Shown one piece after another: positions 22,053 to 43,312 of a stretch of DNA of 64,000 nt. Position 1 is the first letter of the stretch. Every line of letters begins with the position of its first letter. Location: the NCBI RefSeq assembly GCF_003019035.1, contig NZ_CP027447.1; one strand, 5' to 3'. The position numbers and the translations under genes were made by a program. Below the pieces are notes generated by a model. That model was not told where the DNA came from, did not search any database, and saw only the letters and a list, made by a program, of their open reading frames with translations. This stretch comes from Escherichia coli. Its GTDB lineage: Bacteria > Pseudomonadota > Gammaproteobacteria > Enterobacterales > Enterobacteriaceae.

Positions 22053-22155
22053 ATGTTTAAAAAATCGCGTTTTTTCGACATATCCCCAAAACATGTCGAT
22101 GGCATAAACGTATTCCAACGACATGTTTAAAAATCGCATTTTATCGACATATCCC
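22053..22155. repeat. Two imperfect 33-bp direct repeats 70 bp apart, containing a TCGACAT/ATGTCGA inverted motif
   Basis: ATGTTTAAAAAATCGCGTTTTTTCGACATATCCCC (22053-22087) and ATGTTTAAAAATCGCATTTTATCGACATATCCC (22123-22155); second copy overlaps the stop of the minus-strand transferase gene. Confidence 0.7.
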
Positions 22156-24612
22156 TGACGATTCCTTGCCCGCCAACGTCTCCACAATCACCATCGCCGC
22201 CCGTTCTCCCGCCTTGCCATCCATAAACGCATCGCAATAGTGATGACGAATCTTCGTAAGCCGCGCCTGCACCGCACCCCAGTCAAACGCCTCTGACAAC
22301 AAATAACGCAGTTCCGCAACATCATGAGCCACCGGCAATATTTCGCGGATTCGCTGGTCGGCGCTCTCCGGCGTGGAGTAGCTTTTCTCGCCGTCGAGCA
22401 ATTCACTCATGCCCGGAAAGTCGAGCAGGATCACCCGCTTATCGACATGGATAGCATCGAAAATAAAGCCGCTGTTATCGGTCAGCACGTAATCGGCCTT
22501 TGCCAGCAGCGCCAGCGTGTGGCGGGCGGAGTCGGTGCGCTGTTTTAAATGTCTGCGCGCGAGTGCCAGCGATGCAGTTTCTTCCGGGCGCGAGCAGGTG
22601 CCGTGGTGCAGTTTGCAAATCAGGTTCACATCATCGCTTAAGCGCCCCAATTTTTCTGCCCAGTGGGGCAGGGAGCTTAATGCGCCAAACGTTGGGGCGT
22701 AGAGCACCGTAGGTTTACGGGAATCGGGTTGAATATTTTCTGGCAGAATGCGGTCAAACGTGCCGTTATGCCAGGCGTCGAAGCGCGGGTTGCCGACTGC
22801 TTTTGCATTGCCGAAATGCGCCAGCGCCCGCTGGCTGTAGTGGCTGTAACACAAAATGCGCTGATAAAAACGGTTCCAGTCGGCGTGGTTCCACGTCTCT
22901 TTGGCTAAGCCGTACATGGCGCGAACGTTCACCGCTGCCAGGCCATTGAGCGCGGGCGTGTGGTAGGGGCTGACCAGGCATTTCACCCGCTGACCGTGTG
23001 CCTGCATTTCAGATAAGCGCATTCCTTTAAGCTGCGGATCGTCGATGCTTTTTAGCGTCTCCAGCATTTCATCCAGAAACGGTTTAAACACGCGGTCATT
23101 GATCACCAGTGTGCAGCTCTGCCCCTGCGCCTGTAGAGCGGTGATGATTGGGCGATACAGCGAGTAGTGGAATGAGGTTTCCATAAAAAAGCCGATGGTG
23201 TTGGCGATGGGGAATGCGGATGGTTTTGTAACTACGGGTAACTTATTGAAATAGTGACTAATGTTGTCGGTCACTTTTTTCTCGATGTCACTAAAGCCCG
23301 GTCGCTGATAACTAAGGCTCGGGTAACAGGCCAGCCATTTGTCGGCGCGCAGCAGCGGCTGCCAGCACTCTTCCAGCGAGTGCTCACCGTTGCCCATCTG
23401 CTGTGCCAGTTGCGGGTAGTAGCGGCTGTTCACCAGATAAGCACACACTTTGCGGCAGTCCCGCGCGTGCACCAGCCCCGGCAAACTTTTTAGCATCGTT
23501 CCCTGCGAAATTTCGCCGCCAAGGATCATCACCTGCCAGGGAATTTTCGCCAGGCTCGCCAGCAGCGTGTTCAGCACCTGAATATGTTTCTCCTGCTTGA
23601 GAATAACCGCGTCATCTTCCAGCAGCAGATAGTTTTGCCAGCCGTGCTGTTGCGCCAGGCGCAGCGCCTGCAAGTGCGACAGGCGGCGGCCCCGTTGACC
23701 GTTTTCATCTTCACAGGCGGCAAGGCGGGTGATTTTCTCGGGCGGAATATGCAGCAGTGCCAGTTCTTCACGGATCTGTTGTAAGCGATCCGGGCGTTTA
23801 TCCAGATTGATCAATACGACCTGATCGATCGCCTGATGGTTGATCGCCTGGTGATGAGTGGCGTTATGCAGACTCAGATAAGCATTGCGGAGCAGCGGAT
23901 CGCGGACGATATCCGTAAGCGCCGCGTTTACTGGCGTGCTGGCCCCGAGAATAAAGTCTTTATCAAAGGTGTTGTGGCTGTGCGAGATACACAAAATCGT
24001 GCGCTCGCCGGGCAGTTGTAGCGGGTTAGCGCTGAAATTGTCGGTGAAACTTTTCTCTTCGCCTAAATTGCAATCGTCATCGTAGCGGTGCTTTTTCAGG
24101 TAGTTACGGTGATAGCAAAAGGTGCCGTTGAGGATGTTATGCGGGCCGAAGCTGCGGCTTTGAAAGATGCGATTGATGTGGCTGTACCAGATGGGGATCT
24201 GGTCGGAACCGGAGATGAGCGCCCGGTTTTTTTGCATCATAGCGATGGTGTAAGAGATTTTATCTGCCGGGTAGTAGTCGTCATCGTCCATGCAGAGGAT
24301 GTATTCGCCGCGCGCCAGTTCGTTGAGCATATTGCGTTTTTTGCCCAGCGGCAGTTTTTCCGGGTGATGGATGTAGCGGATGTTGAAGGCTTCCTGTGTG
24401 CCATTGGTCAGGCGGTCGATGATGTGTTGATGGCTTTGCGGGGAATCGTCGAGGATGATGAGTTCGCGGCGGTCTGCCGGGTAGTCCTGATAGCGGTACA
24501 TATAAAGCAGGTACGGCAGGAATGCGCTGCGGTTCCAGGTTGGCGTGACGACGCTGACGAACGGTTTTTCGCGCTGGGTGGCGAGTGTTTTGATAATGGT
24601 TGGTGTTGGCAT
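22141..24612 (-). CDS. Three-domain transferase: N-terminal GT2-like, central GT25-like, C-terminal TagF/TagB-like CDP-glycerol glycerophosphotransferase domain
   Basis: GT2-like VSVVTPTWNRSAF...ILDDS...CMDDDDYY; GT25-like VVLINLDKRPDRL; TagF-like LYAPTFG and VLTDNSGFIFDAI motifs; start set at MPTPTIIK because the longer ORF runs into a repeat. Confidence 0.75.
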   Translation of the reverse strand: MPTPTIIKTLATQREKPFVSVVTPTWNRSAFLPYLLYMYRYQDYPADRRELIILDDSPQSHQHIIDRLTNGTQEAFNIRYIHHPEKLPLGKKRNMLNELARGEYILCMDDDDYYPADKISYTIAMMQKNRALISGSDQIPIWYSHINRIFQSRSFGPHNILNGTFCYHRNYLKKHRYDDDCNLGEEKSFTDNFSANPLQLPGERTILCISHSHNTFDKDFILGASTPVNAALTDIVRDPLLRNAYLSLHNATHHQAINHQAIDQVVLINLDKRPDRLQQIREELALLHIPPEKITRLAACEDENGQRGRRLSHLQALRLAQQHGWQNYLLLEDDAVILKQEKHIQVLNTLLASLAKIPWQVMILGGEISQGTMLKSLPGLVHARDCRKVCAYLVNSRYYPQLAQQMGNGEHSLEECWQPLLRADKWLACYPSLSYQRPGFSDIEKKVTDNISHYFNKLPVVTKPSAFPIANTIGFFMETSFHYSLYRPIITALQAQGQSCTLVINDRVFKPFLDEMLETLKSIDDPQLKGMRLSEMQAHGQRVKCLVSPYHTPALNGLAAVNVRAMYGLAKETWNHADWNRFYQRILCYSHYSQRALAHFGNAKAVGNPRFDAWHNGTFDRILPENIQPDSRKPTVLYAPTFGALSSLPHWAEKLGRLSDDVNLICKLHHGTCSRPEETASLALARRHLKQRTDSARHTLALLAKADYVLTDNSGFIFDAIHVDKRVILLDFPGMSELLDGEKSYSTPESADQRIREILPVAHDVAELRYLLSEAFDWGAVQARLTKIRHHYCDAFMDGKAGERAAMVIVETLAGKESSGICR

Positions 24613-24660
24613 GGTGTTTGGGTGAGTTAATGGGTGAATGTGATGAATGTGCGTGCTGAT

Positions 24661-24770
24661 GCCCTCACCCCGACCCTCTCCCACAGGGAGAGGGAGAAAA
24701 CCAGCGCCGATTTTAACACCGTGCTCGATCGGTTCCCTCGCCCCTTTGAGGAGAGGGTTAGGGGGAGGGG
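24661..24770. repeat. Two GC-rich hairpin repeat units (24661-24696 and 24735-24770) between the transferase gene and the upstream 309-aa gene
   Basis: CCCTCTCCC-ACA-GGGAGAGGG and CCCTCGCCCC-TTTG-AGGAGAGGGTTAGGGGGAGGGG; same family as 5193. Confidence 0.6.
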
Positions 24771-24790: not shown

Positions 24791-25720
24791 TCACGTCAGC
24801 AGCGAAAATGCTGACAGCAGCGGCTCTGCCGCACATAACGACTGGAGCTGCTGGCGAATCGCCGCAGCATTTTCACTCTCTCGCCAGCGTTCAAACACCG
24901 CAAAAAGGGCGAAAATATCCTCCTTCCGCAGCGGTGAACCATCCAGCGTCCATAAACTGATTAACGTGCGGATGAGATAAAAATCACACACCAGCGGGCA
25001 ATAATCTGCTCCGTCTGCCTGCCCAATCACGTCGTGATAAACGCGGTAAATCAGCCAGTTGCGCATCATCCACGGCGCGGCGGCAAAATGCTGTTGCCAG
25101 GTGGTTTGCCACTGCACCTTAAGCTGCTGTTGCAACAAAGCTTCGCTGTTGGCGTCATGCAACGTCAGCAAAGTCACCTGCAACGGTAGCGAGGCTTTGC
25201 GCGGGCTTTCCGGCAAAATCGACCAGTCAAACGCAAAACTCCCGAGCAGCGTCACCAGTTGGCGCGCCAGTTGTGGCACGGGTGGGAGTTGGGCGAACTG
25301 TGCCTGTAGCGTGCCTTTTTGTGCATGATCCCCCAGCGCCTGTGGCAGCGTTGTCAAGCGGGCAAGAATATCTCCGTCTCTGCCCGGCATTTTACTGGCG
25401 CGGGAGAGCAAAATCCCGACGGCATACAGGGAAAGCTCCGGGGTTAAATCGGGGAGCGTAAGGGTACTCAAAATTATCTGGTTGACTATCGCATCGCGCG
25501 CGGATAGCTCGGCGGCATTGTCTTCCACAGGGCGGTAGGTGAGCTGTAAATCAAAGGCCCTGGCATCGTTGAGCACCGCTTTGCAACTTTCAATATCGGT
25601 CAATGCCAGGCTCTGGCGAATCTCATTCTTCCAGACCTTGCGGACGTACAAAGGCGAATCGGGATATTGCGTCATAAAATTGCGCACGTATTCCGGTTCG
25701 TAACATTCAATAAAACTCAT
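24791..25720 (-). CDS. Hypothetical protein (309 aa) in the Flag-2 variable/modification region
   Basis: Long ORF co-oriented with lfgN and the transferase gene; no motif I can assign; start chosen at the first ATG (ORF-track start is TTG). Confidence 0.6.
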   Translation of the reverse strand: MSFIECYEPEYVRNFMTQYPDSPLYVRKVWKNEIRQSLALTDIESCKAVLNDARAFDLQLTYRPVEDNAAELSARDAIVNQIILSTLTLPDLTPELSLYAVGILLSRASKMPGRDGDILARLTTLPQALGDHAQKGTLQAQFAQLPPVPQLARQLVTLLGSFAFDWSILPESPRKASLPLQVTLLTLHDANSEALLQQQLKVQWQTTWQQHFAAAPWMMRNWLIYRVYHDVIGQADGADYCPLVCDFYLIRTLISLWTLDGSPLRKEDIFALFAVFERWRESENAAAIRQQLQSLCAAEPLLSAFSLLT

Positions 25721-25847
25721 AGGTGGCTTCCAGTCTTTATTACTTTGCGGAATGTGCAATAAGCGTGCCGGGAATTTTTGTAATCAAAAACAAGGGATTG
25801 AGAATCAGGCGGAAAATCCGTTTCCGCGATGGGGGAAGGAATTGTCG

Positions 25848-32537: not shown

Positions 32538-33638
32538 ATGCAAAACTGGATAAAGGCCGCAGCGATCGCTGTAAGTCTGACGCTGCCCGGCGTGGCGCTG
32601 GCGCAATCGCTGGAGTCGCTGGTCAACGTACAAGGTGTGCGTGAAAACCAACTGGTCGGCTACAGCCTGGTGGTCGGCCTTGACGGCACGGGTGATAAAA
32701 ACCAGGTCAAATTTACCAACCAGACCATCACCAATATGTTGCGCCAGTTTGGCGTGCAACTGCCGAATAAAATCGACCCGAAAGTGAAAAACGTCGCCGC
32801 GGTAGCGGTGAGCGCCACGCTGCCGCCGATGTACTCGCGCGGGCAGACCATCGATGTCACTGTTTCGTCGATTGGCGATGCTAAAAGTATTCGTGGCGGC
32901 ACTTTGTTGCTGACCCAGTTGCACGGCGCGGATGGCGAAGTTTATGCGCTGGCGCAGGGCAGCGTGGTGGTGGGCGGGATGAATGCCACCGGGGCCAGCG
33001 GTTCGAGCGTAACGGTTAATACGCCAACCGCCGGGTTAATTCCTAACGGCGCAACGGTAGAGCGCGAGATCCCCAGCGATTTTCAGATGGGCGACACTAT
33101 CACCCTCAACCTGAAACGTCCGTCGTTTAAAGATGCCAACAATATTGCGGCGGCGATTAACGCCTCGTTTGGCGGCATTGCTACTGCGCAGAGCTCTACC
33201 AACGTCAGCGTGCGCGCGCCCACCAGCCCCGGCGCGCGGGTGGCATTTATGTCGCAACTGGATGATGTACAGGTGCAGGCAGAGAAAATCCGCGCCCGTG
33301 TGGTGTTTAACTCGCGTACCGGCACGGTGGTGATGGGCGATGGCGTTGCGCTGCACGCGGCGGCGGTGTCGCACGGCAGTTTGACCGTCTCGATTAACGA
33401 AACCAGCAACGTCAGCCAGCCGAATGCCTTTGCGAGTGGGCGCACGACGGTAACGCCGCAGAGCAATATCGCGGTGAATCATGCCCGTCCGGGCGTGGTG
33501 AGTTTGCCGGAGTCGAGCAGCCTGAAAACGCTGGTCAATGCGTTGAACAGTTTGGGCGCGACGCCGGACGACATTATGTCGATTTTACAGGCGCTGCATG
33601 AGGCGGGCGCGCTGGATGCCGACCTGGAGGTGATCTGA
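32538..33638 (+). CDS. lfgI: Flagellar P-ring protein FlgI homologue
   Basis: Signal peptide plus FlgI family sequence; start at MQNWIK. Confidence 0.9.
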
Positions 33639-33937
33639 TGAAAGTGAACGCCAGCGGCGGGATTGATGGCAGCGATGCGTTAATGGGGCCGAAGGTTCAG
33701 GCCAATGATATTAAGCAGGCCGCGGAGCAGTTTGAGGCGATTTTTTTACGCAACATGCTGAAAGAGATGCGTAAAACCAACGAGTTGTTCGATTCGAAAG
33801 ATAACCCATTTAACAGCGATTCGGTGCGCATGATGCAGGGGTTTTATGACGATGAGTTGTGTAACACCCTGGCGCAGCAGCACGGGATTGGGATTGCGGC
33901 GATGATTGTGAAGCAGTTGTCGCCGAAGGGGAAATGA
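33638..33937 (+). CDS. lfgJ: FlgJ-like rod-binding domain protein (99 aa, no muramidase domain)
   Basis: Matches the N-terminal rod-binding part of FlgJ (...QAAEQFEAIFLRNMLKEMR...); ORF ends before any glucosaminidase domain. Confidence 0.75.
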   Translation: MKVNASGGIDGSDALMGPKVQANDIKQAAEQFEAIFLRNMLKEMRKTNELFDSKDNPFNSDSVRMMQGFYDDELCNTLAQQHGIGIAAMIVKQLSPKGK

Positions 33938-33950
33938 GGGGCGCGCTTTG

Positions 33951-34060
33951 CCCCTCACCCTAACCCTCTCCCCAAAGGGGCGAGGGGACCGATTGAGCGC
34001 GGAGGTGAATATGGCGCAGGTTTTCGCCCTCTCCCTGTGGGAGAGGGCCGGGGTGAGGGC
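33951..34060. repeat. Two GC-rich hairpin repeat units (33951-33987 and 34026-34060) between lfgJ and lfgK
   Basis: CCCTCTCCCC-AAA-GGGGCGAGGGG and CCCTCTCCC-TGT-GGGAGAGGGCCGGGGTGAGGG; same family as 5193. Confidence 0.6.
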
Positions 34061-34142
34061 ATCAGCGCGCACCATTATCCACTTAAGAATCCCCATCTTC
34101 ACGCCGCTTTTAACCGGCACGATTTACCGGTAAGGATCCAAC

Positions 34143-35519
34143 ATGGACATGATTAACATCGGCTACAGCGGCGCATCAACCGCGCAGGTAGAGCTGAACG
34201 TCACGGCGCAAAACACCGCCAACGCCATGACCACGGGCTACACCCGTCAGGTGGCGGAGATCAGCACCATCGGCGCCAGCGGTGGTTCGCCGAACAGCGC
34301 CGGTAACGGCGTGCAGGTCGACAGCATTCGCCGCGTCTCTAACCAGTATCAGGTGAATCAGGTGTGGTATGCCGCCAGCGATTACGGCTATTACAGCACC
34401 CAGCAGGGGTATCTCACGCAACTGGAAGCGGTACTGAGCGACGATAACAGCAGCCTGAGCGGCGGCTTCGATAACTTCTTCGCCGCCCTTAACGAAGCGA
34501 CCACCAGCCCCGATGATTCCGCCCTGCGCGAACAGGTGATCAGCGAAGCCGGGGCGCTGTCGTTGCGTATCGACAACACGCTGGATTACATCGACTCGCA
34601 AAGCACGGAAATCATCAGCCAGCAGCAGGCGATGGTGTCGCAAATCAACACGCTCACCAGCGGTATCGCCAGCTATAACCAGCAAATCGCCCAGGCTGAA
34701 GCCAACGGTGATAATGCCTCCGCGCTGTATGACGCCCGTGACCAGATGGTGGAAGAGCTTAGCGGGATGATGGATGTGCAGGTCAATATCGACGACCAGG
34801 GCAACTACAACGTCACCCTGAAAAACGGTCAGCCGCTGGTGAGCGGGCAACAAAGCTCGACCATCGCGCTGGAAACCAACGCCGACGGTACGCCGACCAT
34901 GTCGCTGACGTTCGCTGGCACCACCTCGACGATGACTACCGACACCGGCGGTTCATTAGGCGCACTGTTTGATTATCAAAACGACGTGCTGACGCCGCTG
35001 ACCGACACCATCAACAGCATGGCGTCGCAGTTTGCCGATGCGGTCAACAATCAACTGGTGCAGGGCTACGATCTCAACGGTAACCCCGGCGAGCCGCTGT
35101 TTATTTACGATGCCAGCAATGCCGATGGCCCGCTGACCGTTAACCCGGATATCACCGCCGATGAACTGGCGTTCTCCAGTTCGCCGGATGAAAGCGGCAA
35201 CAGCGACAACCTCCAGGCGCTGATCAATATCTCCACCGAACCGCTGGAGATAGCCAACCTTGGCAGCGTGACGGTCGGGCAGGCGTGCTCGTCAATCATC
35301 AGCAATATCGGCATTTACAGTCAGCAAAATCAGACGGAAGTCGATGCCGCGTCCAATGTCTATTCCGCAGCGCAAAACCAGCAGAGTAGCGTCAGCGGCG
35401 TCAGCATGGACGAAGAAGCGGTGAACCTGATCACCTATCAACAAATTTATGAAGCTAATCTGAAAGTCATTTCCGCCGGGGCCGAGATTTTCGATTCGGT
35501 GCTGGAAATGTGCAGCTAA
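34143..35519 (+). CDS. lfgK: Hook-associated protein 1 FlgK homologue
   Basis: 458-aa ORF with axial-protein N-terminus (...GYSGASTAQVELNVTAQNTANA...). Confidence 0.85.
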   Translation: MDMINIGYSGASTAQVELNVTAQNTANAMTTGYTRQVAEISTIGASGGSPNSAGNGVQVDSIRRVSNQYQVNQVWYAASDYGYYSTQQGYLTQLEAVLSDDNSSLSGGFDNFFAALNEATTSPDDSALREQVISEAGALSLRIDNTLDYIDSQSTEIISQQQAMVSQINTLTSGIASYNQQIAQAEANGDNASALYDARDQMVEELSGMMDVQVNIDDQGNYNVTLKNGQPLVSGQQSSTIALETNADGTPTMSLTFAGTTSTMTTDTGGSLGALFDYQNDVLTPLTDTINSMASQFADAVNNQLVQGYDLNGNPGEPLFIYDASNADGPLTVNPDITADELAFSSSPDESGNSDNLQALINISTEPLEIANLGSVTVGQACSSIISNIGIYSQQNQTEVDAASNVYSAAQNQQSSVSGVSMDEEAVNLITYQQIYEANLKVISAGAEIFDSVLEMCS

Positions 35520-35533
35520 GCGGGAGCGCGAAA

Positions 35534-36463
35534 ATGCGAGTAACCACCCAACAAACCTACGTCTCGATGACGCAAAGTTTTAATAATCTCTCCGGCTCTC
35601 TGGCGCATGTGGTCGAGCAGATGGCAACCGGCAAGGAAATTTTGCAGCCGTCGGATGACCCGATCGCCGCCACGCGTATCACCCAGTTGAACCGCCAGCA
35701 GTCGGCGATTGAGCAGTATCAAAGCAATATTGACTCTGCGTCGGCGGGGTTAAGCCAGCAGGAGTCGATTCTCGATGGCGTCAACAACAGCCTGCTGGCG
35801 GTGCGCGACGACCTGCTGGAAGCGGCGAACGGCACCAATACCGCTGATTCGCTCGCAAGCCTCGGGCAGGATATTCAGTCGCTCACCGAATCGATGGTGG
35901 CGGCGCTCAATTATCAGGACGAAGACGGGCATTACGTGTTTGGCGGTACCATCAACGATCAGCCGCCGATTGTGGCGGTGGACGATGATGGCGATGGCGT
36001 GACCGACAGCTATAGCTATCAGGGCAACAGCGACCACCGCCAGACCACGGTGTCGAACGGCGTGGAAGTGGATACCAACGTGGCGGCGAGCGATTTCTTC
36101 GGCAGCAATTTAGATGTGCTCAACACGCTCAATTCGCTCTCTCAGGAGTTGCAAGACCCAAACGTTGACCCGGCCGATCCGCAGGTGCAGAGCGATATTC
36201 AGAACGCCGTTGATGTGGTGGACACCGCTTCGGACGATCTCAACGCCTCGATTGCGTCGCTTGGCGAGACGCAGAACACCATGTCGATGCTGAGCGATGC
36301 GCAGACCGATATTTCTACCTCTAATGATGAGTTGATTGGTTCTTTACAGGATCTCGATTACGGCCCGGCGTCGATCACCTTTACCGGACTGGAAGTGGCA
36401 ATGGAAGCTACCCTCAAGACTTACTCGAAAGTGAGTGAGTTGAATTTATTCAGCGTTCTCTAA
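35534..36463 (+). CDS. lfgL: Hook-associated protein 3 FlgL homologue
   Basis: 309-aa flagellin-like junction protein; start at MRVTTQQ. Confidence 0.8.
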   Translation: MRVTTQQTYVSMTQSFNNLSGSLAHVVEQMATGKEILQPSDDPIAATRITQLNRQQSAIEQYQSNIDSASAGLSQQESILDGVNNSLLAVRDDLLEAANGTNTADSLASLGQDIQSLTESMVAALNYQDEDGHYVFGGTINDQPPIVAVDDDGDGVTDSYSYQGNSDHRQTTVSNGVEVDTNVAASDFFGSNLDVLNTLNSLSQELQDPNVDPADPQVQSDIQNAVDVVDTASDDLNASIASLGETQNTMSMLSDAQTDISTSNDELIGSLQDLDYGPASITFTGLEVAMEATLKTYSKVSELNLFSVL

Positions 36464-36479
36464 CTCTTTCAGGAACCGT

Positions 36480-37457
36480 ATGCAGGTCGGACTTACTTCT
36501 TCGTCACTCACCACCGGCGGCGCGCATAGCGCTGCGGTATCGTCGTCAACCGTTGCGCCCACTCAGGCGGTGCGGCAAAAACTCCCGGCGACGGCGAGTG
36601 AATATCCGGCCTCGCCGCTGATTACCACTCGCCCGCAGCGTTACAGTGTGCAGCTTAACGATCAGCTCACCACGTTGCAGCAGGCGGATCACTATCTCGG
36701 GCAACTGGAACAGCAGTTGCTCGATTACCGTCACAGCCAGCGTAAGGGCGGGCAGGCGCAGAGTTCAGCGCTGATGCAGATGCTGGACAAACGCACCGCG
36801 CTTTCCGGCGGCGCGGTGGACCGCCAGTTGCAGCCAGTGTTGCAGGGGGAAGCGCGGGTGACTTTTCACTCGCCGGATCTGACGAATCTGGTACACAATC
36901 CCACGCCGGGAACGCGCATGTTCAGTGTCACTGGCGGGCGGCAGACCCAGCTTTCGGCGGTGATGCTGTCTGAGGATGACAGCGCCGCGCAGTATCAGAC
37001 GCGGCTGACCAACGCTCTGCGCCGCGTGGGTGTGCAACTGCATCAGCAAGCGGACGGCATCAGCTTCTCCACCACTGAAAAACAGTGGCCCCATATCGAG
37101 CGCACCTTAAGCGTGCGCACCGATGGCGATAAGTCGGCGTTTATGCCGCTGAAAACCTTTGCCGAACCGTCACAGGCGGACCGCTTAGCGCAAAGCCTGC
37201 AACAAGGCGGGGCGGGAATTTCTCAAATGCTGGAAAACATTAATCAGCAGCGCGCGCAAATGGCGGTGCAGCAGGAAAAAGCGCGGCAGTTGATCGACGG
37301 CATGTCCCGCTTCCCGCAAACGGAAAGCGCCGTGCAGGCGTCGGAAAATCTCGGCGGCGTGCTGGATAGCGCCAATCATAACTATCAAGTTTTATTGCAG
37401 GCGGTGAACGGTCAGGCACGGATTTCCAGCCAGACGGTGAGGAGTTTATTGGGGTAG
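36480..37457 (+). CDS. lafW: Hypothetical Flag-2 protein (325 aa), no recognisable family
   Basis: Ser/Thr/Gln-rich ORF in the position given as lafW in the Flag-2 nomenclature as I recall it. Confidence 0.6.
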   Translation: MQVGLTSSSLTTGGAHSAAVSSSTVAPTQAVRQKLPATASEYPASPLITTRPQRYSVQLNDQLTTLQQADHYLGQLEQQLLDYRHSQRKGGQAQSSALMQMLDKRTALSGGAVDRQLQPVLQGEARVTFHSPDLTNLVHNPTPGTRMFSVTGGRQTQLSAVMLSEDDSAAQYQTRLTNALRRVGVQLHQQADGISFSTTEKQWPHIERTLSVRTDGDKSAFMPLKTFAEPSQADRLAQSLQQGGAGISQMLENINQQRAQMAVQQEKARQLIDGMSRFPQTESAVQASENLGGVLDSANHNYQVLLQAVNGQARISSQTVRSLLG

Positions 37458-37547
37458 TGTTATTGAAAATCAATCAAATGAGGCTGTTGTAAAAAATCAT
37501 TTCAGTGCAGAATATGCTATAACTCTACGGGTTAAAAAAGGAATGAA

Positions 37548-37691
37548 ATGACCACTCTCAAGCAACTGATGGATAAGCAAAGCCCTGAAAGTCGTAGGCG
37601 AATAATAAAAAAAGCAGAACGAATCCGGCAAACTATCATTAATAAAAAGCTAGAGTTACCAATAACTAAAACTATCAGCAATTCCGATTGA
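37548..37691 (+). CDS. Possible small ORF (47 aa, basic)
   Basis: ATG with AAGGA RBS 5 nt upstream; MTTLKQLMDKQSPESRRRIIKKAERIRQ...; AT-rich with rare codons, so may not be translated. Confidence 0.25.
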   Translation: MTTLKQLMDKQSPESRRRIIKKAERIRQTIINKKLELPITKTISNSD

Positions 37692-37710
37692 TTTCATTCG
37701 GGATTTTCGT

Positions 37711-37746
37711 TGGCCGGATAAGACGCGTTTAGCGTCGCATCCGGCA
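37711..37746. repeat. REP element
   Basis: GGCCGGATAAGACGCGTTTAGCGTCGCATCCGGCAT. Confidence 0.8.
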
Positions 37747-37760
37747 TATATTGGCACTCG

Positions 37761-38603
37761 TCAGCATTTCTGCACAGTATTTAACAACTTCTCTAAATTC
37801 TGATACATCGCGCGATTAATATCGCTGTTCTGCCAGCCTTCCACATTAAAAGTTAATTGCCAGCTACCATTGCACTGGTTGCGCAGAACAATATCACTTT
37901 CCAGTCGGTTACGAACATATTTATAATAAGTTGTCATTGTCATATTATGCGCTGACAATAAATTATCGAGTTTGTCTTTTCCTGGTTCGAGGGTTTGTGA
38001 CAGTAACGGTACGGAATTATTTTCCTTTCCAGAACTAAGATGAAATATTTTTATTCTTGGACTGTTAATTGACTCTTTTACCAGTTGCGGGGCGTCAGGT
38101 GTACTTTTCAAGTGTGAATACCCCACGGTCGAGCCAATAAATATAACAGCCGCGGTCAACGCTAACCCCATCAGTCCTTTATGTTTTTTTCTAACTGGTA
38201 CAGGCGGTGTTGTCGAAGATATCTCTTCTGACACAGTTTCCTGTACCTGGTCGGTAATCATCAGCTTTTCCGCAGGCGATAACTCCGGCAAAGACACATA
38301 CTCTTTATTGCACAAGTAACCTTTCTTCGGAATTGTTTTAATAATGTTCTGTTGTTTGCCATCATCGTCGATAGCAACGCGTAACGCATGGATCGCCGTC
38401 GGCAGGCTGTTACCGCCGACTATGCGGTTCTTCCATACTTCGGCACATAAATAAGATCGCGATAAAACCACATCGGCATTTTTTGCTAATGTTTCCAGCA
38501 AAATAAAATGGTATTCGCCGAGACGACGTGTTTCACCCGTTTCGCAATGTATTAAGGCATTAAGCGACGGGTCCATCCGCCAGTTGTTGATAATAATACT
38601 CAT
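37761..38603 (-). CDS. lafZ: ToxR/CadC-like membrane-anchored transcriptional regulator (N-terminal winged-helix domain, one TM helix, periplasmic C-terminal domain)
   Basis: Winged-helix core ...LSRSYLCAEVWKNRIVGGNSLPTAIHALRVAID...; hydrophobic segment GLMGLALTAAVIFIGSTVGY; gene is markedly AT-rich. Confidence 0.75.
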   Translation of the reverse strand: MSIIINNWRMDPSLNALIHCETGETRRLGEYHFILLETLAKNADVVLSRSYLCAEVWKNRIVGGNSLPTAIHALRVAIDDDGKQQNIIKTIPKKGYLCNKEYVSLPELSPAEKLMITDQVQETVSEEISSTTPPVPVRKKHKGLMGLALTAAVIFIGSTVGYSHLKSTPDAPQLVKESINSPRIKIFHLSSGKENNSVPLLSQTLEPGKDKLDNLLSAHNMTMTTYYKYVRNRLESDIVLRNQCNGSWQLTFNVEGWQNSDINRAMYQNLEKLLNTVQKC

Positions 38604-39089
38604 AGTTGAGTTTACCTTAGCAAGGGATAAATGTTTCCTGATAGTGCTTTGCATAAAGCACAGTCTTATACGTCCCTGAGAAGATGATTTTTCTGCGTGA
38701 TAATTAATATTTTATGGTAATAGGATTATTCTTAATCACTATATGGCGTGGAAATGTAACGAAATGACAGGACAGGTACAATAGCCAAATGTGTACTATT
38801 TGCAACGCAATGTAAATTTTGGCATCAGTACATTGAGAACAAAACGCGATAATTGATGACAATCTTAACTATATCAAGCATTTGATAAAGACATATTTTG
38901 ATACCTGGCCATGTGGCAGATATTGCTAATAATCTTTTTATCTGAATTTAAACTCTGCTTTTTTTTAGCTAAAAGTGGCATCGGATAATACGTGGCGAAA
39001 AAATTTTAACGGCGATTTTAAGTTTGCTCCTGAGGTGTCGTTTTTACAGGGTATCGAAACGAAAACGATTAATCCCAAGGAGCAGTATC

Positions 39090-40004
39090 ATGTTATCTAT
39101 TAACACCAATAACGCCTCAATGGCCGCCGTTAATGCAATCAGCAAAAGCAGCTCTTCTCTGTCTACATCTATGGAACGCCTGGCAACGGGTAACCGGATT
39201 AACTCTTCTGCCGATGACGCAGCGGGCAAACAAATTGCTAACCGTCTGACAGCACAGTCCAGCGGTATGGGTGTGGCGCTGAGCAACATCAATGATGCCA
39301 CCGCGATGCTGCAAACCGCCGACAGCATGTTCGACGAAATGTCTGATGTGCTGGGTCGTATGAAAGACCTGTCAACTCAGGCAGCGAACGGCACCTACAG
39401 CGACGACGATCTACAGGCGATGCAGGACGAATACGACGAACTGGGTCAGCAGATGTCTGACATGCTGCAAAACACCACTTACGGCGGCACCAACCTGTTC
39501 GGTGTTTCCGGTACCAGCAACACCGGTACTGACGGTCTGTTCCAGAGCGCAGTAACTTTCCAGGTGGGCGCGGAATCTTCCGACACCATGACCGTGAATA
39601 TTTCAAGCCAGCTGAATACCCTGGTGACGGATCTTTCTGCTATCAGCAACTCCTTCAGTGCGGATCAGGCTGACACCACTGGCACCGCAGGCGTTTCTGG
39701 CGGTACTGAGCTGACTGCGTCTGGCTCGGCTAACCAGATGATTACCAGCATTTCGACCGCGATGGATGATGTTTCGCAGATCCAATCCAAGCTGGGTGCG
39801 TCTATTAACCGTCTGAACGACACTGCCAACAACCTGACCAGCATGCAGGACAACACCGAAGTCGCTATCGGTAACATTATGGATACCGACTACGCGACGG
39901 AAGCGTCCAACATGACTAAACAGCAGGTGCTGATGCAGACCGGCATCACCATGCTGAAACAGTCCAACAGCATGTCCAGCATGGTTTCCAGCCTGCTGCA
40001 GTAA
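39090..40004 (+). CDS. lafA: Lateral flagellin
   Basis: 304-aa ORF with flagellin N-terminus (MLSINTNNASMAAVNAI...RLATGNRINSSADDAAG) and C-terminus (...MTKQQVLMQTGITMLKQSNSMSSMVSSLLQ); AGGAG RBS. Confidence 0.9.
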   Translation: MLSINTNNASMAAVNAISKSSSSLSTSMERLATGNRINSSADDAAGKQIANRLTAQSSGMGVALSNINDATAMLQTADSMFDEMSDVLGRMKDLSTQAANGTYSDDDLQAMQDEYDELGQQMSDMLQNTTYGGTNLFGVSGTSNTGTDGLFQSAVTFQVGAESSDTMTVNISSQLNTLVTDLSAISNSFSADQADTTGTAGVSGGTELTASGSANQMITSISTAMDDVSQIQSKLGASINRLNDTANNLTSMQDNTEVAIGNIMDTDYATEASNMTKQQVLMQTGITMLKQSNSMSSMVSSLLQ

Positions 40005-40014
40005 TGGCGGACTT

Positions 40015-40045
<31 letters not shown>

Positions 40046-40162
40046 ACGAACAACACCGCCTGCGGGCGGTGTTGTGCTTTCTGCGGCAGGCGTATTTCCG
40101 CCAGACCGGAAATGGCTTTTCCGCCTGTTTTTCAATCTATTGATTCTTCACATAAAAAATAT

Positions 40163-40177
40163 TGGCACGCCTTTTGC
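40163..40177 (+). promoter_or_regulatory. Sigma54 (-24/-12) promoter upstream of lafB
   Basis: TGGCAC-GCCTT-TTGC, about 30 bp upstream of the lafB start. Confidence 0.7.
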
Positions 40178-40209
40178 CAATAACCTGACATCGTTATCCG
40201 GAGTCATCA

Positions 40210-41526
40210 ATGATCAACCCAAGAACCATTGCGCAAGAAATCGCCTATGCGGATGTTGCCACTCAGGCGGCAAACTTGCAGGAGAAGCAGAGCGAGCTGG
40301 ATGCTGAAAGCAGCGGCCTGGACTCGCTCAGCTCAGCGTTGAGCGATTTTCAGAGCGCCGTTGACGCGCTGAACAGCGATACTGACGGCCCGGTGACGTT
40401 TGCCGCCACCAGCAATAATGACTCGGCGACCGTTTCCGCTAACTCGCAGGCACAGGCGGGAAGCTACTCGTTTTTCGTTGAGCAACTGGCGCAGGGGCAG
40501 CAAACCACGTTCAGTATGGGCGACGACGCCTTTTCCGCCACCGGCACTTTTGAACTGACGATGGGCGACAGCACCATGGATATTGATCTGTCGGCGGCGG
40601 ATCAAAACGGTGACGGCGACGGTTTTATCGACGCCAGTGAACTGGTGAATGCGATTAACGACTCTGATGACAATCCGGGCGTGTCGGCGGCACTGGTAAA
40701 AACCGACGGCACCACCACCATTATGCTCACCTCCGATAGCACCGGGGCGCAGAGCGCATTTTCGGTGAGCGTAACGGGGCATGACACCAGCAACGATAGC
40801 GCCAGCGCGCCCGTTGCCACGGATGTTTCCTCCGCTCAGGACGCGATTATTCATCTCGGCAGTGCCACAGGGCCTGAGATCACCAACAGCAGCAATACGT
40901 TTGATGATGTGATCCCCGGTGTCACCATGACTTTCACCGAAGTCAGCGATTCTGACAGCGACCTCACTACCTTTAACATTAGCGAAGATTCCAGCGCCAG
41001 CCAGGAGAAAGTGCAGACCTTTGTCGATGCCTATAACACCCTGATCGATACGGTTGATTCGCTAACCACCCACGGTGATGACAGTACCAGCGCCGGGGTA
41101 TTTGCAGGCGACGCAGGACTCAGTTCACTGGCGAACCAGCTCGATGATATCGCCCATGCCAGCTACAACGGGGTATCGATTGTTGACTATGGCATCACGC
41201 TTGATTCTCACGGCCACTTACAGATTGACTCCGACCAGTTCAACGACGAAATGGCGAAAAATCCTGACGGTCTGACCTCTATTTTCGTTGGCGACAACAG
41301 CATGGTGGCACAGATGGACGACCTGATTAACACCTACACGGACTCCAGCAACGGCATCATCACCCTGCGCCAGCAGAACATTGACGATCAGATGAGCAAA
41401 ATTCAGGACGAAGGCGATCAGCTTACTGATACCTATAACGCCAACTACGACCGTTATCTCGAGGAGTACACCAACACGCTGGTCGAGGTGTACACCATGA
41501 AAGCCAGCATGGCGGCATTCGCGTAA
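40210..41526 (+). CDS. lafB: Flagellar filament cap protein FliD homologue
   Basis: 438-aa ORF immediately after the flagellin gene. Confidence 0.8.
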   Translation: MINPRTIAQEIAYADVATQAANLQEKQSELDAESSGLDSLSSALSDFQSAVDALNSDTDGPVTFAATSNNDSATVSANSQAQAGSYSFFVEQLAQGQQTTFSMGDDAFSATGTFELTMGDSTMDIDLSAADQNGDGDGFIDASELVNAINDSDDNPGVSAALVKTDGTTTIMLTSDSTGAQSAFSVSVTGHDTSNDSASAPVATDVSSAQDAIIHLGSATGPEITNSSNTFDDVIPGVTMTFTEVSDSDSDLTTFNISEDSSASQEKVQTFVDAYNTLIDTVDSLTTHGDDSTSAGVFAGDAGLSSLANQLDDIAHASYNGVSIVDYGITLDSHGHLQIDSDQFNDEMAKNPDGLTSIFVGDNSMVAQMDDLINTYTDSSNGIITLRQQNIDDQMSKIQDEGDQLTDTYNANYDRYLEEYTNTLVEVYTMKASMAAFA

Positions 41527-41548
41527 CTCAGAAGGAATATCCCTAAAG

Positions 41549-41941
41549 ATGTACCAAGTACAGGACGGCTATTCGCAATATAAAGAGATCGATCTCGCGG
41601 CGCGTACTGCGGCGGCATCGCCTCTGGAACTGGTGCTGGTGCTGTTTTCTGGTCTGATGGACGAGCTGGAACGCGCCAAAAGCCATATTGAAGGGCGGCG
41701 TTTCGAGAAGAAAGCCCAGAGCATCAATAAATGCATCGACATTCTCAATGCGCTCACCAGTTCGCTGGAGTTTGAAACTGGCGGCGAGCTGGTGGTCAAC
41801 CTTTCGCGCCTCTATGACCACTGTGTGTATCGCTTGTATGAGGCTAGCGGCGAACTGTCGGCAGAGAAAATCGATGAAGTGATGCTGATCTTAAGCAACC
41901 TGCGTGAAGGCTGGGAAGGGCTTTCGGGCAAGCTGGGTTAA
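41549..41941 (+). CDS. lafC: Flagellin chaperone FliS homologue
   Basis: 130-aa four-helix ORF (...LELVLVLFSGLMDELERAK...). Confidence 0.85.
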   Translation: MYQVQDGYSQYKEIDLAARTAAASPLELVLVLFSGLMDELERAKSHIEGRRFEKKAQSINKCIDILNALTSSLEFETGGELVVNLSRLYDHCVYRLYEASGELSAEKIDEVMLILSNLREGWEGLSGKLG

Positions 41942-41945
41942 GACG

Positions 41946-42257
41946 ATGGAAAAACAACGCAGGCAACTTTTCGCGCTGGTTGAAGCGATGAACGAAGCCC
42001 TCGACAAGCAACGCTGGCGACGCCTTCCGGCACTGCATCAGCAGTTGATGCGCCAGTTTCACGATTACGTGGCGGCGGAAACCGACGCGGCGCAGTTGTG
42101 TGCGGTGAAGGCGCAGCTGTACGGCGCGTTTAATGCCCTGATTAAACGGCGCGAGCAGCGTGCAGAAGTGTTGACGGCGCGTATGGAACAGCATCAGCGG
42201 CATCAGGAAGGCGTACTGGCCTACTCAATTGTTAATTTACTTTCGGAGAAGTCATGA
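41946..42257 (+). CDS. lafD: FliT-like flagellar chaperone (small helical protein)
   Basis: 103-aa ORF following the fliS homologue; assignment by position. Confidence 0.55.
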   Translation: MEKQRRQLFALVEAMNEALDKQRWRRLPALHQQLMRQFHDYVAAETDAAQLCAVKAQLYGAFNALIKRREQRAEVLTARMEQHQRHQEGVLAYSIVNLLSEKS

Positions 42258-43312
42258 ATCCGGCATTGCTTGCCACGCTCGGAACACTTGCGGAAACGGC
42301 GTCGCTGAAAGCGGATATTTTACCGCCGGTGAGTAGTGAAAACGCGCCCGCGTTTACCCTGCCGAAAATGGCGGTCGCGGCGGTGGCGGAGCGCGTTCAT
42401 AGCGCAAAAACCAGTCAGCAACAGGCGACGCGCCCGCAGGAGAACGATCCGGTGGCGATGCAGGCGCTAATGGCGCTGTTACTTCCGCAACCTGCCGCGC
42501 CGCATCAGGTCACGCCGCAGCCGCGAAACGTCGCAACATCGCCGGTTATCCAGCAATTGACGAAAGCGGTGGTGCAAAACGCGCCGCAACGCCCGACGCA
42601 GCAGCAGGAATTCACGCCGTTGCCGCCGCAGTTGCAGGAGCTGATCAGTCAGTTGCCGCAGGCGAAACCCGAACAGCAGGCCAGACTGGCAATTTACGCC
42701 AGTGAAGATTTACATGCCATTGCGCCGACGCAGCCGCGCGTCTCAACACAGCCAGCTCGCCCGAAACCTGAACTAACCCGTGTGAACGCGCGCCCGCAGG
42801 TCGAGCGTAAAACGGAAAAAGTGCCGGACAGCGAACCGGTTATTGCGCGTGCGGTGTTGCAGGTTAAGACGCCGGATCTGGTCAGCGAACATCAGGAGAT
42901 TGTCGCCAAACCAGCCACGCTTTCGATGGACGAACTGGGCGAAAAACTGACGACGCTGTTGAAAGATCAGATCCACTTTCAGCTCAACAAACAACAGCAG
43001 ATCTCCACCATCCGTCTCGATCCACCGTCGCTTGGCAAGCTCGAGATCGCCGTACAACTCGACAACGGCAAACTGATGGTGCACATCGGCGCGAACCAAA
43101 GTGAAGTTTGCCGCGCGTTACAGCAGTTTAGCGACGATCTCCGCCAGCATCTGACGGCGCAAAATTTTATGGAGGTGAACGTACAGGTTTCCTCCGAAGG
43201 GCAGTCGCAGCAACAACAGTCGGGCCATCAGCAGGAAGAGGTGAGTGCCGCCTTACAGCTTGATGATGCGCCTCAATTTCAACAGAACGAATCCGTTTTG
43301 ATCAAAGTGTAA
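42254..43312 (+). CDS. lafE: Hook-length control protein FliK homologue
   Basis: Pro/Gln-rich central region and FliK-like C-terminal domain (...IRLDPPSLGKLEIAVQLDNGKLMVHIGAN...). Confidence 0.8.
   Translation: MNPALLATLGTLAETASLKADILPPVSSENAPAFTLPKMAVAAVAERVHSAKTSQQQATRPQENDPVAMQALMALLLPQPAAPHQVTPQPRNVATSPVIQQLTKAVVQNAPQRPTQQQEFTPLPPQLQELISQLPQAKPEQQARLAIYASEDLHAIAPTQPRVSTQPARPKPELTRVNARPQVERKTEKVPDSEPVIARAVLQVKTPDLVSEHQEIVAKPATLSMDELGEKLTTLLKDQIHFQLNKQQQISTIRLDPPSLGKLEIAVQLDNGKLMVHIGANQSEVCRALQQFSDDLRQHLTAQNFMEVNVQVSSEGQSQQQQSGHQQEEVSAALQLDDAPQFQQNESVLIKV

Follow-up and report, generated by a model that had tools for sequence, protein, structure and literature searches.

LafW of the Escherichia coli Flag-2 locus belongs to a widespread family of lateral flagellar proteins with a flagellin-like predicted fold

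Swarming of Vibrio, Aeromonas, Plesiomonas and many enterobacteria is powered by lateral (Flag-2-type) flagella, the parts lists of which are assumed to mirror that of the canonical flagellum. What, then, is the product of lafW, one of the few conserved lateral flagellum genes without a canonical counterpart? We addressed this question in a 64,000 nt stretch of Escherichia coli DNA (assembly GCF_003019035.1, contig NZ_CP027447.1; hereafter the window), which is bounded by fadE at the left and dinB at the right, and carries lafW at positions 36480–37457 of the + strand. The name LafW is said to stem from the description of the Flag-2 locus of E. coli 042 by Ren et al. in 2005. In the literature the protein appears only as a 'putative hook-associated protein' that has no Flag-1 counterpart and is used as a Flag-2 marker (PMC6993521, PMC7526173), and this label is annotation only (PMC6993521). 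An earlier note on this DNA, made from the sequence alone, had listed the function of LafW as unknown, which agrees with our search of the literature, where no experiment on LafW was found.

The 325-codon open reading frame (ORF) starts with an ATG at 36480 and ends with a TAG stop codon at 37455–37457, and an AGGAA ribosome-binding site was read from the sequence at 36471–36475 (+ strand). The ORF listing, together with the TIGR02550 and Trans_reg_C matches of the flanking genes, confirmed its location between flgL and a divergent regulator gene, as described in the earlier note. Its designation as LafW also held, based on the position between lfgL and lafZ and on 95–96% identity, over 100% of the length, to E. 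coli proteins of the LafW cluster, which are entered as 'lateral flagellar putative hook associated protein' or 'flagellar hook-associated protein'. Comparison with the orthologues of Escherichia, Pseudocitrobacter and Citrobacter gave ratios of nonsynonymous to synonymous substitution rates (dN/dS) of 0.10–0.17, which represents purifying selection, although 2–4 times weaker than that on lfgL (0.02–0.06) and lafA (0–0.08). Since full-length homologues reach down to approximately 20% identity and dN/dS is in this range, the ORF is a real gene; by its identity and position it is the orthologue of E. coli LafW. Truncated copies of 179–263 aa are present in some E. coli lineages, and the cluster of full-length proteins is by far the largest (4,363 member sequences). 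The stretch as a whole was found in 1,275 of 5,426 complete E. coli genomes, with the closest ones being 97.6% identical over the stretch.

A profile search of 1.84 billion representative sequences extended the LafW family to 222 proteins at 50% clustering, mostly 330–380 aa in length, with full-length homologues spanning 96% to about 20% identity, and with members in Vibrio lateral loci and GC-rich metagenomes. Alignments of 30 members (shallow) and 119 members (deep) were used, and a profile scan of genomes with the shallow alignment retrieved Enterobacterales only. Judged by these homologues, the family is much wider than the Enterobacterales and is a conserved component of lateral-type flagellar clusters, and not the Flag-2 peculiarity for which it had been taken.

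Gene order was compared in 36 loci with upstream sequence, among them those of 26 Enterobacterales genomes, five distant contexts from metagenomes or genomes, and chromosome 2 of V. campbellii. The LafW homologue starts ≤89 nt after an FlgL of approximately 300 aa in nearly all of these, with the truncated or frameshifted ORF of locus L021 as the sole exception. FlgL precedes the homologue in all 26 retrieved Enterobacterales genomes, and in the five distant members the homologue directly follows the ~300-aa FlgL and closes a lateral-type flgB-L cluster. On V. campbellii chromosome 2, reached via a tblastn match, FlgK (457 aa), FlgL (299 aa) and a 346-aa LafW-family ORF are encoded consecutively, and the latter aligned to the LafW family profile with an hhalign E-value of 4.4e-23. 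The lateral Region 1 of V. parahaemolyticus comprises VPA0264–VPA0275, and since FlgJ is VPA0272 and FlgK is VPA0273 in this order, we assign the LafW homologue of this species to VPA0275, the deletion of which has been described only together with the whole of Region 1. The regulator LafZ is not linked to the LafW homologue in the distant loci L001, L031, L033 and L035; from the absence of such a regulator there, we conclude that the LafZ linkage is younger than the LafW-FlgL linkage, and that the conserved partnership of LafW is with flgKL. One distant metagenomic locus (L036, 4683–6096, − strand, and L037) has the LafW homologue followed by a divergent 151-aa ORF without Pfam match, and then by a LafZ-like 327-aa Trans_reg_C regulator.

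Structure prediction with AlphaFold gave a mediocre model from the 30-sequence alignment (predicted local distance difference test score, pLDDT, 71.5), while the model from the 119-sequence alignment had a pLDDT of 85 and a predicted template modelling score (pTM) of 0.72, with residues 55–270 above 90. The N-terminal region (aa 1–53, 36480–36638, + strand as for all following segments) is predicted to be disordered (pLDDT 41–56), is rich in Ser, Thr, Gln, Ala and Pro, and is the least conserved part of the protein (1.09 bits); this region may contain the signal for flagellar type III export. It is followed by a first helical segment (aa 54–109, 36639–36806; helices 54–88 and 95–109) with pLDDT >90 and 1.85 bits, which contains the conserved motif QLN-Q----QQA--YL--L--.L and includes Q67 (99%), N60 (87%), L73 (88%) and R105 (99%). 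An inserted α/β domain (aa 110–231, 36807–37172) is predicted with a pLDDT of 95–97 and is among the most conserved parts (mean 1.93 bits), with R105, D114, F129, L180, G184, F196, E200 and W203 highly conserved in or just before it, as well as a GEGxRFP-type loop at 214–218. The C-terminal helices (aa 232–325, 37173–37454; helices 232–241, 247–275, 281–313 and 317–324) pack against the first helix, and residues 314–325 form the best conserved stretch (2.26 bits; V320, L323, L324). The predicted bundle consists of one long helix from the N-terminal part and two from the C-terminal part, with the conserved α/β domain inserted between them.

Foldseek searches of the PDB returned flagellins as all of the top 13 matches with the first model and all of the top 10 with the second, with E-values of 4.5e-7 to 3e-4 and probabilities of 0.98–1.00 over 280–350 aligned columns. 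These included FliC of P. aeruginosa (4.5e-7), FlaA/B/D of V. cholerae (~3e-5), and flagellins of Sphingomonas and Stenotrophomonas, and the next matches were the Campylobacter junction complex, Legionella FlgL and E. coli FliD, with no non-flagellar protein under an E-value of ~0.08. The model thus suggests a flagellin/HAP3 ground plan (D1 with inserted D2) minus the N-terminal D0 helix. The earlier note had seen no recognisable axial-protein termini, and this stands as far as sequence-level axial matches and a D0-type helix in residues 1–53 are concerned, whereas the predicted fold is flagellin-like. The note had also named a confident hit in an established flagellar family as evidence that would overturn its description; the flagellins retrieved by two independent models suggest such a hit at the level of predicted fold, but none was obtained by sequence.

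We tentatively favour the explanation that LafW is a diverged flagellin-like accessory protein, which would be a late export substrate and would act, without polymerising, where hook and filament meet or where the filament begins, by way of its conserved middle domain. The lfgL stop codon (36461–36463) is separated from lafW by a gap of only 16 nt, and because of this lafW is probably co-transcribed with lfgKL. This gap contains no terminator-like site; the nearest match to a terminator consensus (36418–36441) is weak and falls within the terminal part of lfgL, and sites of this type are not enriched over shuffled sequences. As the last gene of the flgK-flgL unit, lafW would have its product made together with the hook-associated proteins. 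For ancestry, export, location and partner, we infer that LafW may descend from a flagellin-type gene located behind flgL, in the way that flaC is in the polar flgKL-flaC operon of Vibrio, that it would leave the cell as a late substrate of the lateral flagellar type III system, that its place as an accessory which does not polymerise may be the hook-filament junction or the hook-proximal start of the filament, and that it may bind a partner via the middle domain.

LafW has export-like traits in its disordered N-terminus and in its composition. Its Ser, Thr and Gln content of 31.4% (S 10.2, T 8.0, Q 13.2) bears out the richness in these residues noted before, and compares with 28–34% in LfgL, LfgK, LafA and LafB, 19.5% in LafZ and 22.6% in LfgI; since the family-wide figure is only 22%, this richness is a trait of the present LafW sequence and not of the family. 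LafW contains no cysteine, and in the family Cys is as rare (0.16%, with 82/119 members Cys-free) as in exported proteins. No Sec-type hydrophobic signal is present in LafW.

Several lines of evidence weigh against flagellin kinship and an exported, filament-associated role. Residues 1–53 contain five prolines and no predicted D0-type helix, and because this helix is lacking, the model makes canonical axial polymerisation of LafW unlikely. The middle domain is conserved and not hypervariable, while the insert is the variable part in flagellins, and the Foldseek template modelling (TM) scores are only 0.2–0.3. The charge is neutral to basic, not acidic: Lys and Arg make up ~9–11% (11% family-wide), as in FliK and cytoplasmic proteins, compared with 2.6–5% in axial proteins. 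Neither the single LafW sequence nor the 30-member and 119-member alignments gave a significant match in Pfam, NCBIfam or PDB sequences; Flagellin_N (PF00669) was not matched by LafW or the 119 members at E ≤ 0.1, and LafW, including its conserved C-terminal tail, had no significant match to Flagellin_C (PF00700). In an hmmsearch of PDB sequences nothing significant was found with the deep profile, and the flagellin matches seen with the shallow profile (E 0.32–6.8) had vanished. The profile-profile comparison proposed in the earlier note did not separate flagellins from controls either: hhalign of the family alignment gave E-values of 0.13 with FlgL (33 sequences) and 0.43 with LafA (21 sequences), no better than the controls FlgK (0.025), FlgI (0.11), FliD (0.36) and FlgE (0.62), in a comparison made without secondary-structure scoring and with template profiles of limited diversity. 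The FlgL, LafA and control profiles were harvested from 38 loci, as a homologue search with FlgL had given only relatives of ≥85% identity. A likeness of the LafW termini to FliC seen by eye was rejected, since hidden Markov models (HMMs) of the tail and first helix miss LafA and FlgL among 1,526 ORFs, and these HMMs gave no alignment with the K-12 FliC termini even at a database size of one. Finally, the searched literature contained no data on export, localisation or mutant phenotype of LafW.

Three sub-threshold signals point the other way. In the top-scoring hhalign path, which is not significant, VQLNDQLTTLQQADHYL falls on the ND1 helix of LafA; a single family member (P0195) matches three flagellin models of NCBIfam in its first helical segment (E 0.002–0.012, 14–17 bits versus cutoffs of 365–531); and Pfam Flagellin_IN is found sub-threshold in the middle domain of 5/119 members. 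At the sequence level we consider these to be weak hints in a consistent register, not proof.

Other flagellar families gave no match. LafW lacked Pfam matches to the FlgK and FliD domains Flg_bb_rod, FlgK_D1, Flg_bbr_C, FliD_N and FliD_C, with hhalign probabilities of 1.9% for FlgK and 0.2% for FliD, and had no FliK-type Flg_hook domain (PF02120), which is present in LafE, the FliK-type protein of the same locus (42254–43312, 3.5e-17). All five Vibrio-clade homologues tested (P0401, P0417, P0479, P0489 and P0495) showed a sub-threshold match to PF22905, 'Hydrolase N-terminal helical domain', at residues ~60–121 over the first helical segment (E 8e-5 to 8e-3, 17–23 bits versus a cutoff of 27), a signal not shown by the Enterobacterales members. 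The V. parahaemolyticus structure 3pwx, deposited as 'putative flagellar hook-associated protein', was considered as a solved LafW homologue and rejected, as it is the lateral FlgL (E 3.7e-127 to Vibrio FlgL); the Vibrio LafW homologue itself had no PDB match, and there is no solved structure of a LafW family member.

The main alternative, which draws on analogy with FljJ-FlbT and FlgM and which we consider rather improbable, is that LafW may be a secretion-coupled regulator, which would stay cytoplasmic up to completion of the hook-basal body, sequestering a chaperone (e.g. LafC/FliS) or repressing lafA, and would then be exported. Production with the class-2-type flgB-L unit, ahead of lafA, would suit such a checkpoint, as would the disordered N-terminus, the missing D0 helix and the non-axial charge, and a precedent is available in Caulobacter FljJ, the first flagellin made, which forms no filament alone and co-represses translation until secreted (PMC7591256). 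However, Flag-2 has an anti-sigma factor, LfgM, and a sigma factor, LafS, of its own, no homologue of FlbT was seen in the loci examined, FliS-type matches reflect generic helical-bundle similarity, and the linkage to LafZ is not kept in distant loci. This alternative also leaves the conserved α/β domain unexplained, which in the accessory-protein explanation would be the binding site for a partner.

The tight coupling of LafW to flgKL and a basic composition typical of cytoplasmic proteins could also be accounted for if LafW were never exported, and were to act as a cytoplasmic co-chaperone or adaptor for LfgK, LfgL, LafA and LafB, with the bundle binding the termini of the substrates and the middle domain docking on the export gate. 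We hold this to be improbable to a greater degree: dedicated chaperone genes already exist in lfgN, lafC (FliS) and lafD (FliT) (PMC6993521), the low Cys content fits export, and a protein of 325–380 aa with a 50-residue disordered N-terminus does not resemble the known flagellar chaperones of 100–150 aa.

There is a smaller chance still that LafW is a structural component after all, polymerising as a third junction protein or minor filament subunit, with an N-terminus that folds only on assembly. The NCBI names 'flagellar hook-associated protein' and 'flagellin' would agree with this, as would the flagellins being the best Foldseek matches and the position after flgKL, which mirrors flgKL-flaC of the Vibrio polar system. 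In addition to the absence of an N-terminal D0 helix and the prolines in its place, this reading is opposed by a charge composition unlike that of axial proteins, and by the N-terminal region being the least conserved in LafW, whereas the termini are the most conserved parts of axial proteins.

A flagellin-modifying enzyme or Maf-like factor, with the middle domain as catalytic domain (E200, D114, R105, W203), is very improbable: the invariant charged and aromatic residues of this domain and the name maf-5, given on 15–25% identity to a 349-aa hypothetical protein between flgL_L and lafA of Plesiomonas (PMC4481668), would speak for it, but neither LafW nor the 119 members matched Maf/DUF115, a glycosyltransferase or another enzyme family in Pfam and NCBIfam, no nucleotide-binding fold is predicted, the Plesiomonas authors state that their protein is without classical Maf domains (PMC4481668), and glycosylation genes lie elsewhere in the locus, with a GT2 gene in VR1 at 22141–24684 (PMC6993521). 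The absence of enzymatic motifs reported in the earlier note was likewise confirmed, as none was found in LafW. The proposal that lafWZ is a toxin-antitoxin pair (PMC4637896) was rejected, since in distant loci the linkage of LafW is to flgL and not to lafZ, and no toxin-antitoxin family is matched by either protein.

Returning to the reading of LafW as a flagellin-like accessory, a broader version is possible but doubtful, in which the LafW family would represent an ancient, so far unrecognised class of 'degenerate flagellins' that originated from the flagellin gene behind flgL, lost the N-terminal D0 helix and turned the insert into a conserved binding domain. It would serve as a dedicated extra component of the lateral flagella of gamma- and betaproteobacteria, where it could be a third junction protein, an adaptor or an export-coupled checkpoint. 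If true, this would be a degenerate-flagellin component without counterpart in the textbook flagellum of E. coli and Salmonella, and LafW as junction component or secretion-coupled regulator would in either case add a new part to the model of the lateral flagellum.

The family is also relevant to annotation. NCBI names its members 'flagellin' in Vibrionaceae, 'flagellar hook-associated protein' in Escherichia and Citrobacter, and 'hypothetical' in Rosenbergiella, Tatumella and metagenomes, and no curated model reaches its cutoff for the Vibrionaceae homologues named 'flagellin'. Near-identical E. coli lafW copies in RefSeq are inconsistently named as 'hypothetical protein', 'flagellar hook-associated protein' or 'flagellar biosynthesis protein FlhF' (NZ_CP074052.1). 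Both 'hook-associated protein' and 'flagellin' are putative labels. These differently named proteins now form a single family that is invariably found with flgKL and has a predicted shape like that of flagellin, which is a reason to correct the annotations.

The genes around lafW are arranged in the order lfgK-lfgL-lafW, divergent lafZ, lafA, LafB (FliD), followed by the remaining filament and motor genes. The upstream genes are lfgK (FlgK, HAP1; 34143–35519, + strand, FlgK_D1 at 6.9e-64 and Flg_bbr_C) and lfgL (FlgL, HAP3; 35534–36463, + strand, TIGR02550 at 1.3e-57). For lfgL the ORF program had selected a GTG at 35510, which overlaps lfgK by 10 nt, and since the database homologues are 309 aa and begin with MRVTT, the true start is probably at 35534. 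Downstream, lafZ (37761–38654, − strand) encodes a 297-aa ToxR/CadC-like winged-helix regulator (Trans_reg_C at 1.4e-13; CadC NF007540 at 1.6e-8, which is under the cutoff). The spacer between lafW and lafZ, known from De Maayer et al. as the integration hotspot 'VR2', is AT-rich (39% GC versus ~58% for the locus) and contains a 47-aa ORF (MTTLKQLMDKQSPESRRRIIKKAERIRQTIINKK..., 37548–37691, + strand); the equivalent stretch of a related E. coli genome is annotated by PGAP, the NCBI annotation pipeline, as a truncated helix-turn-helix pseudogene. A palindrome resembling repetitive extragenic palindromic (REP) sequences (GCCGGATAAGACGCGTTTAGCGTCGCATCCGGC, 37713–37745) is located just downstream of the lafZ stop codon, and short perfect hairpins are present in the lfgJ-lfgK spacer (34026–34048, GCCCTCTCCC/GGGAGAGGGC) and the lafA-lafB spacer (40050–40075), while an Rfam scan of 33000–42000 found nothing. 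In VR1, between the lfi and lfg clusters, an 846-aa protein (22141–24684, − strand) has an N-terminal GT2 glycosyltransferase domain (4.7e-18) and ~690 residues without Pfam match, and is presumably a glycosylation enzyme for the Flag-2 flagellin. The adjoining 321-aa ORF (24791–25759, − strand) has no Pfam match at E ≤ 0.001, and is placed where lfgA, lfgM, lfgN or VR1 cargo would be expected.

LafW can be compared with five known systems. The injectisome tip proteins IpaD and SipD share with LafW a helical bundle with an inserted mixed α/β domain (Foldseek target-normalised TM 0.29–0.35) and are exported by a type III system, but differ in having E-values of only 0.085–0.7, no sequence similarity, and another secretion system and gene context. 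A second comparison is with the Maf-5 proteins of Plesiomonas and Aeromonas. The 'Maf-5' protein of Plesiomonas (349 aa), encoded between flgL_L and lafA, matches the LafW family in size (PMC4481668), and by position and size is probably a mislabelled candidate LafW homologue; the Maf/DUF115 domain of genuine Maf proteins is absent from LafW. Caulobacter FljJ, a regulatory hook-proximal flagellin paralogue that is made earlier than the main flagellins, offers a precedent for an export-dependent, non-structural role (PMC7591256). Unlike LafW it is an obvious alphaproteobacterial flagellin with intact termini, 49% identical to its paralogues, and its partner FlbT had no counterpart in the LafW loci. 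The polar flaC of Vibrio is the third gene of flgKL-flaC, directly after flgL like lafW, and its product is of similar length to the Vibrio lateral LafW homologue (377 versus 346 aa), but FlaC is a canonical filament flagellin, whereas LafW-family proteins fail all flagellin sequence models. From the flagellin/FlgL (HAP3) superfamily as a whole (PF00669, PF00700; P. aeruginosa FliC 4nx9, V. cholerae FlaA-D, Bacillus cereus FlgL 5ziy), LafW differs in its lack of significant sequence or profile similarity, its disordered, proline-containing N-terminus without D0 helix, its conserved insert, its neutral-to-basic charge and its prediction as a compact-bundle monomer. With this superfamily it shares the late-gene position adjoining flgL, the paucity of Cys and, in this copy, the richness in Ser, Thr and Gln; the predicted structure suggests a similar overall plan as well, in which a long helix near the N-terminus precedes an inserted β-containing domain and long C-terminal helices that pack back on the first helix.

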